Origin: Escherichia coli
GTDB lineage: Bacteria; Pseudomonadota; Gammaproteobacteria; Enterobacterales; Enterobacteriaceae
DNA: 64,000 nucleotides
NCBI RefSeq assembly: GCF_003991155.1
Contig: NZ_CP031293.1
Direction: 5' to 3' (one strand)
Part shown: in pieces, positions 9,481 through 30,623 of the stretch
Position numbering within the stretch: position 1 is the first letter of the stretch
Layout of the letters: the number at the start of each line of letters is the position of its first letter
Notes under the pieces: generated by a model
Told to the model about the DNA's origin: nothing
Database searches by the model: none
What the model saw: only the letters and a program-made list of their open reading frames with translations
Translations under genes and position numbers: made by a program

Positions 9481-9657
9481 TGCTCATTCCACGGACAAAA
9501 ACAGAGAAAGGAAACGACAGAGGCCAAAAAGCTCGCTTTCAGCACCTGTCGTTTCCTTTCTTTTCAGGGGGTGTTTTAAATAAAAACATTAGGTTACGGC
9601 GAAGAAGAACGGAAACACCTTAAACCGGAAAATTTTCATAAATAGCGAAAACCCGCG

Positions 9658-9669
9658 AGGTCGCCGCCC
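9658..9669. other. cos: cosN cohesive-end site (cos region spans roughly 9480-9700)
   Basis: Plus strand AGGTCGCCGCCC is the reverse complement of the lambda 12-nt cohesive end GGGCGGCGACCT; located about 180 bp upstream of Nu1 as in lambda. Confidence 0.75.
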
Positions 9670-9868
9670 CGTAACCTGTCGGATCGCCGGAAAGGACCCG
9701 CAAAATGATAATAATTATCATCTACATGTCACAACGTGCATCTACGCCATCAAACCACGTCAAATAATCAATTATGACGCAGGTATCGTATTAATTGATC
9801 TGCATCAACTTAACGTAAAAACAACTTCAGACAATACAAATCAGCGACACTGAATACGGGGCAACCTC

Positions 9869-10063
9869 ATGTCAACGAAGAACAGAACCCGCAGAACAAC
9901 AACCCGCAACATCCGCTTTCCTAACCAAATGATTGAACAAATTAACATCGCTCTTGAGCAAAAAGGGTCCGGGAATTTCTCAGCCTGGGTCATTGAAGCC
10001 TGCCGTCGGAGACTAACGTCAGAAAAGAGAGCATATACATCAATCCAAAGTGATGATGGATGA
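9869..10063 (+). CDS. Small conserved lambdoid protein, YlcI/DUF3950-like, possible ribbon-helix-helix fold
   Basis: 64-aa ORF in the position of the lambda right-end small ORF and DLP12 ylcI; beta-strand-then-helix pattern (IRFPNQMIEQINIALEQKG). Confidence 0.55.
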   Translation: MSTKNRTRRTTTRNIRFPNQMIEQINIALEQKGSGNFSAWVIEACRRRLTSEKRAYTSIQSDDG

Positions 10064-10425
10064 ACATCCCGGTTTCTTCCACCATCGCACCGGAAAAGCG
10101 ACTATGAGGGTAACCCTGCGTCTGTCAGCACAGTAAAACCCGGTGTGCATCGTTTTTGATTATTCCCGCACACTCACGCAGAAGGAATTCCCCGTCGGGC
10201 TACGGTCATGGTTAATGCGGGAATACGGCGACGATACAGCGCAGCTAAAAGGGTAATAGACGGATAGACCGGTTTATTTCATTCCACAGGATTCTGAGTG
10301 TCCCCAACTTCCTCCAATAGTCTGAGCGTACACCTATATAGTTTTAATTTTCATCAATCCATTTAACTATCGTTTAATTGTTGTCACATAGGATTCTGCC
10401 GTTTTTAACAATGCAGGATAATAAG

Positions 10426-10719
10426 ATGAAAAAAATGTTGTTTTCTGCCGCTCTGGCAATGCTTATTACAGGATGTGCTCAACAGACGTTTACTGTTGGA
10501 AACAAACCGACAGCAGTAACACCAAAGGAAACCATCACCCATCACTTCTTCGTTTCGGGAATTGGACAGGAGAAAACTGTTGATGCAGCCAAAATTTGTG
10601 GCGGCGCAGAAAATGTTGTTAAAACAGAAACCCAGCAAACATTCGTAAATGGATTGCTCGGTTTTATTACTTTAGGCATTTATACTCCGCTGGAAGCGCG
10701 TGTGTATTGCTCACAATAA
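10426..10719 (+). CDS. bor: Bor lipoprotein (serum-resistance, lysogenic conversion)
   Basis: Track ORF 10378..10719; Bor-like sequence from MKKMLFSAALAMLITGCAQQTF (lipobox LITGC), 97 aa; antisense to lysis genes as in lambda. Confidence 0.9.
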   Translation: MKKMLFSAALAMLITGCAQQTFTVGNKPTAVTPKETITHHFFVSGIGQEKTVDAAKICGGAENVVKTETQQTFVNGLLGFITLGIYTPLEARVYCSQ

Positions 10720-10750
10720 TTGCATGAGTTGCCCATCGATATGGGCAGCT

Positions 10751-11212
10751 CTATCTGCACTGCTCATTAATATACTTCTGGGTTCCTTCCAGTTGTTTTT
10801 GCATAGTGATCAGCCTCTCTCTGAGGGTGAAATAATCCCGTTCAGCGGTGTCTGCCAGTCGGGGGGAGGCTGCATTATCCACGCCGGAGGCGGTGGTGGC
10901 TTCACGCACTGACTGACAGACTGCTTTGATGTGCAACCGACGACGACCAGCGGCAACATCATCACGCAGAGCATCATTTTCAGCTTTCGCATCAGCTAAC
11001 TCCTTCGTGTATTTTGCATCGAGCGCAGCAACATCACGCTGACGCATCTGCATGTCAGTAATTGCCGCGTTCGCCAGCTTCAGTTCTCTGGCATTTTTGT
11101 CGCGCTGGGCTTTGTAGGTAATGGCGTTATCACGGTAATGATTAACCGCCCATGACAGACAGACGATGATGCAGATAACCAGAGCGGAGATAATCGCGGT
11201 TAATCTGTTCAT
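10751..11212 (-). CDS. Rz: i-spanin Rz
   Basis: 153 aa, matches recalled lambda Rz. Confidence 0.92.
10810..10992 (-). CDS. Rz1: o-spanin Rz1 (embedded in +1 frame of Rz)
   Basis: 60 aa, lipobox VVGCTS and proline-rich PPPPPAW region, nested inside Rz as in lambda. Confidence 0.88.
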
Positions 11213-11685
11213 ACCTCAATCTCTCTGACCATTCCGCCCGCTTCTTTGAATTTTGCAATCAGGCTGTCAGCCTTATGCTCGAACTGACCATAACCAGCGC
11301 CCGGAAGTGAAGCCCAGATATTGCTGCAACGGTCGATAGCCTGACGAATATCACCGCGATCAATCATCGGTAAAGCGCCACGCTCTTTAATCTGTTGCAG
11401 TGCCACAGCGTCCTGGCTTTTCGGAGAGAAGTCTTTCAGGCCAAGCTGCTTGCGGTAAGCAACCCACCAGCGTGAAAGAAGTTGATAACGGCCTGCAGCT
11501 GTTGATTTGAGTTTCGGGTTTAGCGTGACAAGTTTGCGAGGGTGATCGGAGTAATCAGTGAAGAGTTCTCCACCGACAATAACGTCATAACCGTGGTTAC
11601 GTGTCGGTTGTCGCCCGTTATCCGTTCCCTCTGACCATGCCACCATATCAAGGAAAGCTTTACGCTGGGAATTTAGTACCTGCAT
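11209..11685 (-). CDS. R: Endolysin R (lytic transglycosylase)
   Basis: 158 aa; sequence recognised as lambda R-like (ends ...[14 protein letters not shown]). Confidence 0.92.
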
Positions 11686-11688
11686 AAA

Positions 11689-12015
11689 TTACTCCTTAGA
11701 GCCACCAAACTTGTTACCGATTACTCTCATTGCAGCCCCACGAATAGCATCAACACCGATCAGCCCCACCCCACCACCAATGGCAACAGATAGTGATTTA
11801 GGCCATCCGACATACTCAAGAGCGGATGCAAAAGTCAGCGTCAGAGCGCCACAGAGTAGAATTTCGAGTGTTTTTCGCTTCCAGCCGCCACCACCGCCAA
11901 AATAGGCAATACGTAAACCAGCCATAACAATCGACATAATCACTGCGCCCAGCGGTGTGTCTCCACGCCACCAGCTCTGGACCAACTCCAGCCATGTATT
12001 TGGGTTATGAGGCAT
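11689..12015 (-). CDS. Holin (three predicted TM segments; not lambda S-like)
   Basis: 108 aa, three hydrophobic stretches and charged C-terminus, immediately upstream of endolysin; does not match recalled lambda S. Confidence 0.7.
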   Translation of the reverse strand: MPHNPNTWLELVQSWWRGDTPLGAVIMSIVMAGLRIAYFGGGGGWKRKTLEILLCGALTLTFASALEYVGWPKSLSVAIGGGVGLIGVDAIRGAAMRVIGNKFGGSKE

Positions 12016-12159
12016 TTGTAGTTATCTCTCACCTCGCTGATACAGCAGGTGCAAATTGAGGAAACATCATGTACCGCAAATCAGAAGCGGAAACGTCAAA
12101 GAAGCCGAGTCAATGGATAACTGCGGGATAGGCTAGGACCAAGGAATCCCCAGACCCAG

Positions 12160-12186
12160 AAACGACAAAACCCGCTCGATGGCGGG
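12160..12186 (-). terminator. Putative rho-independent terminator on minus strand (tR'-like, upstream of holin)
   Basis: Stem CCCGC (12171-12175) / GCGGG (12182-12186) with 6-nt loop, followed on the minus strand by TTTTGTCGTTT. Confidence 0.45.
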
Positions 12187-12306
12187 TTTAAGCTGTGTGG
12201 CGAAGTGAGCACACTTAACAGATTACGATATTTTTTGCGTACGCGTTAGTGTTTTGATAGAATTTTCAGCCACATAAAAATTCATTCTTATAATTCGGGA
12301 TATATA

Positions 12307-13170
12307 ATGGATATAACTTGTTTAGAATGTGGCAATGTTCTTGACGACCCAACTGTAGCTTGCGATAAATGCGGTGCCACGCCTCATGTTGTAGTGCTGG
12401 GCAAACAATCGTACTTTCCTATTGGTGCTGTAACAGCAAATCTTGAAAAAAATGATTCAAGAGCATTTGATTATCGATTAGGTGAAGTTTGGGATCTAAA
12501 AAATGAAGTCACATCTGAATTCATAACCAGAATTGAGAAAAAATTTAGCCGAAAAAACAAATTTCATAACTTCCTAGACTCAGATCACAACCCTTCATCC
12601 ATTCCTACGATCCTAAAAAAATACATTAATAAGAATAATGAATTCATTGATTTATCTAGAGCTATAATAGAGAAGCTTAAACATAATGCTAATAACGAAT
12701 CGAGAGTTGCCCAACTTCAGGGGGGGAGCGTTGTTTTCATCCACTATAAGTCTACCGAACCAGAGGATTTGGGGAAACTTCTAATCGTAATGGTTGATAA
12801 ACAAAGCGCCTATGACTTTGATTCGGATAAGTTGACCCCAACAAGATTAAATCCAATTAATACCGATGCCTTACGGCAGGCTGCGATGTTCGATTTAACT
12901 TTATTCGAAGCCAGTTATCCAGAAAACAAGGGTGACTCATATGTACATTTCTTGCAAGGTAAATCTAAAAGCGATTTTTTCAAAGACTCATTAGGTTGCC
13001 GACATGATTCGGACAATAAAAGAAGCATTCAGCAATTATTCAGTGCTATAGATATTTTTGCTAGTAAAAACTCACTCGGTCGTGTACTGCGTGATACTAT
13101 TGACAATGAAGTTAAATCCTTACTGGAAAAAAATCAAAAGATAAACACGGAAATAAGTCCGTTAAGATAG
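12307..13170 (+). CDS. AT-rich cargo gene 1: N-terminal zinc-ribbon protein of unknown function (likely frame-broken; see open frame 13128-13481)
   Basis: 287-aa ORF; N-terminus CLECG...CDKCG (C-x2-C / C-x2-C); visibly AT-rich; antisense to the phage late operon between Q and holin. Confidence 0.6.
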   Translation: MDITCLECGNVLDDPTVACDKCGATPHVVVLGKQSYFPIGAVTANLEKNDSRAFDYRLGEVWDLKNEVTSEFITRIEKKFSRKNKFHNFLDSDHNPSSIPTILKKYINKNNEFIDLSRAIIEKLKHNANNESRVAQLQGGSVVFIHYKSTEPEDLGKLLIVMVDKQSAYDFDSDKLTPTRLNPINTDALRQAAMFDLTLFEASYPENKGDSYVHFLQGKSKSDFFKDSLGCRHDSDNKRSIQQLFSAIDIFASKNSLGRVLRDTIDNEVKSLLEKNQKINTEISPLR

Positions 13171-13481
13171 AGGATATTTCAAAAATAATTGACTCATGCC
13201 TGACTGATTCACACAAATGTAAGGGAACGTTTGTCGATTTTGTTAATCTTAATGGTTTCCAGATTGACCCTCAATTTGAACCAACTCCTAAAGCAGCTGA
13301 AAGCGCGCTTACAATTGAAGTGGCAGATAACGACAATAATTTTAAGTTGAAAATAATGCGTGGAGCTATTGGAGACGAAAAGTCAAATAAGCCTGTAATT
13401 CTCACTGACAACAAATGCGAAATTGTGATAAAATTGAGTCAGGCAAATTATGATGAACTCAAAAGATATAGAGACAGCTAA
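13128..13481 (+). other. Start-less open frame (-1 relative to cargo gene 1) that probably encodes its C-terminal part
   Basis: Frame open from 13116 to stop TAA 13479-13481, about 115 protein-like codons, no long ATG-initiated ORF; begins at the A7 tract 13127-13133; ends 2 nt before the next gene's ATG. Confidence 0.5.
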
Positions 13482-13483
13482 TA

Positions 13484-29169: not shown

Positions 29170-29512
29170 GGCCTGTCAGTTTCTTAAGATATCCAGACCA
29201 ACCGCCACCAACTGGATACGAACAGGCCGCCTACAGGCAACACGTAAAGATCCAACCAAGCCAAAATCTCCTTACCTCACAACACGGCAAGCCTGCATTG
29301 CGGCGCTTCAGTCTCCGCTGCATACTGTCCAGGTGAGCGCGGGTGATGGCATAACAGAGGAAAGAAAATGTCACTCTTCCGCAGAAATGAAATATGGTAT
29401 GCCTCGTATTCGCTCCCGGGCGGGAAACGAATTAAGGAATCTCTTGGCACAAAGGACAAGCGGCAAGCTCAGGAGTTGCACGACAAGCGAAAAGCAGAAC
29501 TCTGGCGAGTAG
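29141..29512 (+). CDS. xis: Putative excisionase (HTH, AlpA/Xis-like); 3' end uncertain
   Basis: Met at 29141 in frame of track ORF 29111..29512; HTH-like segment [26 protein letters not shown]; directly upstream of and overlapping int. Confidence 0.45.
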
Positions 29513-30531
29513 AAAAGCTAGGGGATTTACCTGATGTCACTTTTGAAGAGGCCTGCCTAAGATGGCTTGAGGAAAAAGCTGATAAAAAATCTCTCGATTC
29601 AGATAAAAGCCGGATTGAGTTCTGGCTTGAACATTTTGAGGGTATAAGGCTTAAAGATATCTCGGAGGCAAAGATTTACTCTGCTGTAAGCAGAATGCAT
29701 AACAGAAAGACGAAAGAAATATGGAAACAGAAAGTTCAGGCCGCCATCAGGAAAGGTAAAGAACTGCCTGTTTATGAACCAAAGCCAGTATCAACTCAGA
29801 CAAAGGCAAAGCATCTTGCCATGATAAAGGCCATTCTCCGTGCTGCAGAACGCGACTGGAAGTGGCTGGAAAAAGCGCCTGTCATCAAGATACCAGCGGT
29901 CAGAAACAAGCGAGTCAGATGGCTGGAAAAGGAGGAAGCAAAACGCCTTATTGATGAGTGCCCCGAACCACTGAAATCTGTCGTCAAGTTTGCGCTGGCA
30001 ACTGGTCTGAGAAAGTCGAACATCATAAATCTGGAATGGCAACAAATCGACATGCAGCGACGAGTTGCCTGGGTGAATCCAGAAGAGAGCAAATCAAACC
30101 GCGCCATTGGTGTGGCGCTGAACGATACCGCCTGTAAAGTGTTGCGTGATCAAATAGGCAAGCATCGCAAATGGGTGTTTGTACATACCAAGGCGGCTAA
30201 GCGAGCAGATGGAACATCAACGCCTGCGGTCAGGAAGATGCGCATCGACAGCAAGACATCATGGCTATCAGCTTGTCGTCGTGCAGGAATTGAAGATTTC
30301 CGTTTCCATGACCTCAGACACACCTGGGCAAGCTGGCTGATTCAGTCAGGCGTCCCATTATCAGTGCTTCAGGAAATGGGCGGATGGGAGTCCATAGAAA
30401 TGGTTCGTAGGTATGCTCACCTTGCGCCTAATCATTTGACAGAGCATGCGAGGAAAATAGACGACATTTTTGGTGATAATGTCCCAAATATGTCCCACTC
30501 TGGAATTATGGAGGATATAAAGAAGGCGTAA
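29368..30531 (+). CDS. intD: Tyrosine integrase (DLP12 IntD-like)
   Basis: 387 aa; C-terminal catalytic region [15 protein letters not shown]...VRRYAHL; adjacent to tRNA-Arg. Confidence 0.93.
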
Positions 30532-30546
30532 CTGATTGAATTGTAA

Positions 30547-30623
30547 TGGCGCGCCCTGCAGGATTCGAACCTGCGGCCCACGACTTAGAAGGTCGTTGCT
30601 CTATCCAACTGAGCTAAGGGCGC
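30547..30623 (-). tRNA. argU: tRNA-Arg (anticodon UCU); 3' end carries the prophage att core
   Basis: Minus-strand sequence GCGCCCTTAGCTCAGTTGGATAGAGCAACGACCTTCTAAGTCGTGGGCCGCAGGTTCGAATCCTGCAGGGCGCGCCA; cloverleaf elements and CCA end visible. Confidence 0.93.

Follow-up and report, generated by a model that had tools for sequence, protein, structure and literature searches.

The lysis genes described here most probably form a standard lambdoid four-gene cassette (S, R and Rz/Rz1) that encodes a single-start holin of the lambda family, carries a crossover in R and belongs to an apparently intact prophage at the DLP12 site, a reading to which we assign a probability of about 0.9. They lie in a 64,000-nucleotide stretch of Escherichia coli DNA, the whole of which is called the window. 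Judged by comparison with related phages, the cassette is a recombinant: its leader, S and the first two-thirds of R are SfIV-like, and the rest of R is lambda-like, together with Rz, Rz1 and bor. The features concerned, in window coordinates, are the following.

10426..10719, plus strand, bor/iss lipoprotein gene, convergent (PF06291, E 6.6e-31; Iss in RefSeq)
10751..11212, minus strand, Rz i-spanin of lambda type, 153 aa (PF03245, E 2.6e-54; 99% identity to lambda Rz)
10810..10992, minus strand, Rz1 o-spanin lipoprotein, 60 aa (PF06085, E 2.9e-20; 98% identity to lambda Rz1)
11209..11685, minus strand, R endolysin, soluble lytic transglycosylase of lambda type, 158 aa (94% identity to lambda R)
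11332..11338, best-supported crossover interval inside R, SfIV-like on its 5′ side and lambda-like on its 3′ side
11689..12015, minus strand, S holin, 108 aa, lambda-family class I of the SfII/SfIV/SfV type, single start codon
12016..12255, minus strand, leader upstream of S, common to SfII and SfIV (87-92% nt identity), with the Shine-Dalgarno-like GAGGTGAGAGA
14678..15034, minus strand, antiterminator Q, 118 aa (PF06530, E 4.5e-47)

The holin gene is a 108-codon open reading frame with an ATG start, found at exactly these coordinates in the list of open reading frames, and is clearly not a chance ORF. Three hydrophobic segments, predicted from Kyte-Doolittle hydropathy only, are centred near residues 23-37, 54-65 and 78-93 and are in register with those of lambda S in the hydropathy profile. 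The sequence-only reading of this DNA had described a 108-aa holin with three predicted transmembrane segments, and both points hold. Holins of class I have about 100-110 residues and three transmembrane segments and are encoded immediately upstream of a soluble endolysin without a secretion signal; the window holin agrees with this description in its length, in its hydropathy prediction and in the position of its gene directly before R in the lysis cassette.

Aligned with the holins that had been proposed for comparison, with DLP12 EssD standing for S21, it shares 24% identity with lambda S (BLASTP, E 8e-7) and 25% with P22 gp13, and shows no similarity to the S21-type EssD (E 3.5). A tblastn search of 50,697 phage records did not lead from the holin to a lambda-type S at E<=0.01, so that profile models were needed to recognize the relationship. 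The Pfam model PF05106 ('Phage holin family, lysis protein S') matches residues 3-102 with E 5.7e-25 and 88.1 bits against a cut-off of 23.8, the NCBIfam equivalog TIGR01594 (holin_lambda) gives 121.3 bits for the window holin and 127.3 for lambda S against a curated cut-off of 55.05, and PHROG 126 is common to the window holin (E 1.1e-36) and lambda S. In a four-way alignment that includes lambda S and P22 gp13, the sequences are collinear end to end and 25 columns are invariant. It is unlikely that the profile matches are owed to composition or transmembrane bias, because the holin aligns with the lambda S family collinearly over its full length and conserved G, C, D and R positions are found in this alignment. 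On these comparisons, the window holin is best regarded as a deeply diverged, genuine member of the lambda S class I family. The earlier statement that it does not resemble lambda S is accurate for pairwise searches and fails at the family level; the label 'non-lambda' has to be given up, since the profile models place the protein as a diverged lambda S allele, though as a distant homologue and not a close one.

A spacer of 3 nt, TTT, separates the S stop codon from the start of R, whose Shine-Dalgarno sequence is provided by the last S codons (AAG GAG TAA). At the protein level, R shares 92% identity with SfII R and matches lambda lysozyme (PDB 1am7) with E 1.3e-99. It has no N-terminal hydrophobic or SAR segment and keeps the catalytic Glu19 in the context ...VAWSEGT, in agreement with what defines the lambda R transglycosylases (GH104). 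Rz1 is wholly embedded in Rz in a different reading frame, the arrangement of the two-component embedded spanins of lambda type, in which Rz (PF03245) has a transmembrane segment at its N-terminus and Rz1 (PF06085) is a lipoprotein. The lambda-like block ends with bor: DNA identity to lambda is ~93% from bor up to the beginning of R, and the lambda DNA match extends to window 10372. With the lambda proteins translated from NC_001416, the identities listed above (94%, 99% and 98%) confirm that R, Rz and Rz1 match lambda closely.

To locate the junction, the window cassette was aligned with lambda, SfII and SfIV, and the sites where these references differ were scored. From ~12200 down to ~11338 (leader, S and the first ~350 nt of R) the informative sites are SfIV-like, and from 11332 downward (3′ end of R, Rz/Rz1 and bor) the sequence is lambda-like at 97-100%. 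With SfIV as reference, the maximum chi-square breakpoint in R falls at 11338/11332 (chi2 51.8), a value reached by 0 of 2000 permutations; 37 sites of SfIV type against 7 of lambda type lie on its 5′ side, and 37 of lambda type against 2 of SfIV type on its 3′ side. With SfII as reference the breakpoint interval becomes 11443-11488; the interval is thus reference-dependent. Nucleotide identities follow the same division: for the S ORF they are 98.5% to SfIV and 40.1% to lambda, for the 5′ part of R 93.1% and 84.7%, for the 3′ part of R 70.8% and 96.9%, and for Rz 38.9% and 98.7%, respectively.

The cassette is mosaic relative to lambda, as the sequence-only reading had it, and its resemblance to lambda breaks off sharply a little before GGAGTA, the ribosome-binding site of R. 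The position that it gave for the recombination junction, between holin and R, does not stand: S and the 5′ part of R belong to one SfIV/SfII-like block, and the breakpoint is inside R. The drop in similarity before the R ribosome-binding site is better read as an older module boundary, common to all SfV-type phages, and the event that made the present cassette as a homologous crossover inside R, the only segment conserved between the SfIV-like and lambda lineages. As judged from the alignments, this crossover swapped SfII/IV-type spanins for lambda Rz/Rz1/bor and left the holin in place.

Two other accounts of the holin deserve to be weighed against this reading. One of them, implied by the sequence-only reading, joins a holin from outside the lambda family to lambda R/Rz/Rz1 by a junction between S and R. 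It can draw on the identity of only 24% to lambda S, on the failure of tblastn to reach a lambda-type S at the threshold used, on a megablast match to lambda that ends at window 11667, 18 nt inside R, and on an S/R boundary built differently from that of lambda (the TTT spacer against an overlap of 17 nt). It is nevertheless very improbable, as three independent profile libraries put the holin in the lambda S family with scores close to that of lambda S itself, the first 350 nt of R are nearer to SfIV than to lambda and the supported breakpoint is inside R, and the same S occurs with a lambda-type R in SfII and SfIV. Nor is this pairing peculiar to the window, given the 92% identity of SfII R and the presence of an identical cassette in many E. 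coli genomes. The other account makes the holin an S21-type class II pinholin, as in DLP12 at the same site in K-12, and gains what credit it has from the location of the prophage at the DLP12 attachment site and from the many genes shared with DLP12 (ybcK, emrE, ybcN, rusA and nohD). Against it, DLP12 EssD has no similarity to the window holin by BLASTP and falls in a different PHROG, the window holin has three hydrophobic segments and not two, and its partner endolysin is a soluble lambda-type R without a SAR domain, in contrast to DLP12 RrrD, which matches PF00959 (Phage_lysozyme). The pinholin account retains next to no probability and is refuted by the EssD and PHROG comparisons. The lambda-family assignment with a crossover in R is therefore kept in what follows.

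Within that family, the holin belongs to a well-populated allele group. At the protein level it is 99% identical to SfIV S, 98% to SfII S and 95.5% to SfV S, and S with ~240 nt of upstream DNA matches the Shigella phages SfII and SfIV at 92-95% (megablast, with leader matches ending at 12255 for SfII and at 12220 for SfIV). The S DNA also matches SfV, Escherichia phage mEp460 and several temperate vB_Eco phages. Phage records annotate the holin as 'class I holin' or 'Lambda-like group I holin', and its RefSeq name is 'phage holin, lambda family'. A database search listed 120 homologue clusters, and all but two short fragment clusters among them have precomputed PF05106. Holin residues 8-19 (window ~11959-11994) form a segment that ends in SWWRGD(T/V)P and hardly varies across the subfamily, and the motif W[WF]RG[DE] occurs in 104 of the 120 listed clusters. 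A W-P-D tripeptide is present in SfV and in most relatives.

The pairing of this holin allele with a lambda-type R is, on the available sequences, already established in SfII/SfIV and in many E. coli prophages. Other members of the subfamily keep different company, since the Fels-1 and YeP1 holins are paired with a GH19-type endolysin and not with lambda R; in P22, a lambda-type S is paired with a PF00959 lysozyme. The S/R boundary is a general exchange point.

The start region of S departs from that of lambda. The N-terminus of the window holin reads MPHNPNTW, and its start aligns with Met3 of lambda S, i.e. with the S105 start. The in-frame codons leading to it are GAG AGA TAA CTA CAA ATG, and the TAA three codons before the ATG makes an N-terminal extension impossible; further into the frame, Met comes next at codons 27 and 31, both within the first hydrophobic segment (TMD1). 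A Met-Lys/Arg-Met dual start yields a holin and an antiholin, and is typical of lambda and P22 without being required for membership of the family. This antiholin motif, for which a search had been suggested, is absent from the N-terminus of the window holin. The region from -70 to +30 around the S start has no significant RNA structure (fold z = -0.02) and provides no evidence for an sdi-like structure. A 59-aa alternative-frame ORF within S (11816-11995) was considered as an antiholin and rejected; read by eye, its product is rich in charged residues and shows no obvious membrane span.

Comparison with relatives gives this single start a direction. The WWRGD motif occurs in 77 full-length-like clusters, of which 61 start with M-K/R-M (e.g. 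MKMPHNPNTWPDWLELFQSWWRGD) and 16, the window allele included, have a single start; the Fels-1 homologue is annotated 'Dual start motif'. In the DNA alignment, the GAGGTGAGAGA ribosome-binding region is conserved in all aligned subfamily members. Next to it, relatives with a dual start read (T/C)C ATG AAA ATG, the window and SfIV read TAA CTA CAA ATG, and SfV has another disrupted version of the dual-start region. The single start thus looks like a derived loss within a mostly dual-start subfamily. By analogy with lambda, the window allele should make only an S105-type holin and no S107-type antiholin. Without a lambda-type dual start, a different lysis timing, as anticipated by the sequence-only reading, becomes plausible, and analogy with lambda S105-only mutants suggests that the shift would probably be towards earlier lysis. 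The lambda antiholin is dispensable and tunes timing only. The absence of a dual start in SfI/II/IV/V is already published, with a statement that timing control in these phages is unknown (PMC3851460).

On the minus strand, 153 nt ahead of S, the leader has a terminator-like hairpin (12168-12189) with the sequence AAACCCGC-CATCGA-GCGGGTTT and a T-rich tail. An Rfam scan of 9500-15500 at E<=1 returned only chance-level matches to eukaryotic miRNAs and snoRNAs. Q shares 55% identity with SfIV Q and 45% with DLP12 QuuD, and presumably activates the late transcription of the lysis genes. Consensus promoter scans of the interval from the island described below to S and of the region just downstream of Q did not locate a minus-strand pR′. 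The 3′ ends of Q and of the convergent gene DS1_2 overlap by 21 nt (14678-14698), which leaves no intergenic room for pR′ directly after Q. As an opposite-strand island of 2.4 kb separates Q from S, the route of late transcription into S is inferred.

This AT-rich island has two genes on the plus strand (window 12307-14698), opposite to Q and S. Its proteins match NF053868 (DS1_1, nucleoid-associated anti-phage protein with a YejK/NA37 domain) with 349 bits and NF053869 (DS1_2) with 375 bits in NCBIfam, and the island apparently corresponds to DS-1 in the DefensePredictor study, in which the YejK nucleoid-associated domain is among the domains newly validated in defence (PMC13092281). A PADLOC 2023 scan of both proteins gave no match; PADLOC 2023 has no model for DS-1. 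The whole 64-kb window is the same as E. coli 2016C-3878 (NZ_CP029747) except for one base in DS1_1, at window 13127-13133, where a run of seven A residues stands in place of eight. With the shorter run, DS1_1 no longer encodes 391 aa and is reduced by a frameshift to a 287-aa ORF (12307-13170) with a leftover 53-aa ORF (13320-13481). The change could be genuine, as a homopolymer slip that inactivates the gene or is phase-variable, or could come from a sequencing error. The Q-to-S interval (window 12016-14700) is a recurrent cargo site in related prophages: it holds opposite-strand nmpC, with IS5, in DLP12, two opposite-strand genes in SfII, two genes and IS1 in SfIV, orf48 in SfV, an opposite-strand 159-aa gene in a metagenomic relative and DS-1 in the window.

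The cassette is part of a lambdoid prophage integrated at tRNA-Arg(UCU) (30547-30623), the DLP12 site. The integrase gene intD abuts this tRNA gene at the argU/DLP12 attachment site (window ~29369-30623). The annotation gives the order integrase, recombination, immunity, replication, nin-region, Q, lysis, terminase, head and tail, with the host genes fimZ/sfm to allS beyond the prophage. Genes like those of DLP12 (emrE, ybcK, ybcN, rusA and nohD) are found along it. Its gene content suggests an intact prophage that is related to the cryptic one of K-12 and differs from it in the holin/endolysin module. In a set of 5426 complete E. coli genomes, the S allele is present at >=80% nt identity in 1198, and the 1.6-kb leader-S-R-Rz region is covered to >=80% in 270, at least 24 of which have it at 100% identity.

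Whether the cassette is functional, and how its holin is timed, are questions on which other views can be taken. It is unlikely that the prophage is defective and that the cassette survives in it unexpressed, with no current role in lysis. Such a view would fit its place at the locus of a cryptic prophage, the frameshift in the adjoining DS1_1 and the failure of consensus scans to find pR′, but each of the four lysis ORFs is intact and almost identical to a functional phage gene, the annotation has no pseudogenes in the integrase, replication, Q, lysis, terminase, head and tail modules, and the same S allele is carried by isolated phages (SfII, SfIV, mEp460 and the vB_Eco series). As to timing, the authors of the SfIV paper, for whom the mechanism in the single-start Sf-phage holins was unknown, speculated on a late-gene HNH protein as timing factor (PMC3851460). 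The corresponding idea for the window, namely that a separate antiholin or timing factor encoded elsewhere in the prophage regulates the single-start holin, has that statement in its favour together with the Trp-rich N-terminal segment ending in SWWRGD, conserved across the subfamily. The idea is nonetheless quite doubtful: the ORF list has no further membrane-protein ORF in or beside the cassette, an antiholin that only tunes timing can be dispensed with in lambda, and dual-start relatives conserve the Trp-rich segment just as well, so that it is no replacement specific to single-start alleles. There is a small chance that the SfV/SfIV-type allele times lysis other than by an S107/S105 ratio, either through this periplasmic segment (W..L..SWWRGD), which would control the insertion of TMD1, or through an unrecognised partner protein. 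The reading of an ordinary lambdoid cassette in an apparently intact prophage accordingly remains the preferred one.

In that preferred reading, the course of lysis would be the one known from lambda. Class I holins open holes that are large and non-specific, their timing is programmed, and energy poisons can trigger them early. Q-dependent late transcription would express S, R and Rz/Rz1; S would accumulate in the inner membrane and trigger at an allele-specific time to form large holes; the soluble transglycosylase R would exit through them and degrade the murein; and the Rz/Rz1 spanin complex would then disrupt the outer membrane. Because identity to lambda S is low (24%), details established for S105, such as hole size and the behaviour of TMD1, would carry over to the window holin by family analogy only.

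Beyond correct annotation, the result has little import. Module exchange within lambdoid lysis cassettes is textbook mosaicism, and the present case is an ordinary and well-documented example of it; earlier records already cover the holin allele, its family assignment, the missing dual start and the pairing with a lambda-type endolysin. Two small refinements can be added, namely that a crossover inside the conserved R swapped the spanin/bor module while the holin stayed, and that the single start looks like a derived loss in a mostly dual-start subfamily. The MKM and M alleles make a natural pair for testing the contribution of an antiholin to lysis timing outside lambda.

Compared with known systems, the window holin shares with lambda S and P22 gp13, the prototype class I holins, the Pfam, NCBIfam and PHROG family, the length, three predicted transmembrane segments in register and the place directly upstream of the endolysin in the late operon. 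It differs from both by a longer Trp-rich N-terminal segment, by a shorter and less charged C-terminal tail and by the lack of the Met1-Lys2-Met3 dual start of lambda S (S105/S107) and P22 gp13; the SWWRGD segment itself is missing from lambda S, and the 17-nt overlap of lambda S and R is replaced by a spacer. The Fels-1/ST64B holin and the enterobacterial 'MKM...SWWRGD' holins of Salmonella, Klebsiella, Citrobacter, Erwinia and Serratia are of the same subfamily (51-90% identity). These relatives have the W..L..SWWRGD N-terminal segment and the GAGGTGAGAGA ribosome-binding region in common with the window holin, but keep the M-K-M dual start that the window allele lacks.

The nearest counterparts are the holins of SfII and SfIV, which agree with the window holin in length (108 aa), single start and leader and are likewise paired with a lambda-type R of 158 aa; SfV S has a three-residue W-P-D insertion (9 nt) that the window, SfII and SfIV alleles lack. 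The likeness ends at the spanins, as SfII, SfIV and SfV have a different, shorter Rz (130 aa) with an overlapping Rz1, in contrast to the lambda Rz/Rz1/bor of the window, and SfII Rz matches DUF2570 only below threshold (E 7e-5) and PF03245 not at all. For that module the counterpart is the DLP12 cassette (essD-rrrD-rzpD/rzoD-borD), which occupies the same locus, has the same lambda-type Rz/Rz1/bor and likewise carries opposite-strand cargo (nmpC) between Q and S, but combines a 71-aa EssD holin with the PF00959-type lysozyme RrrD where the window has a class I holin and lambda R.
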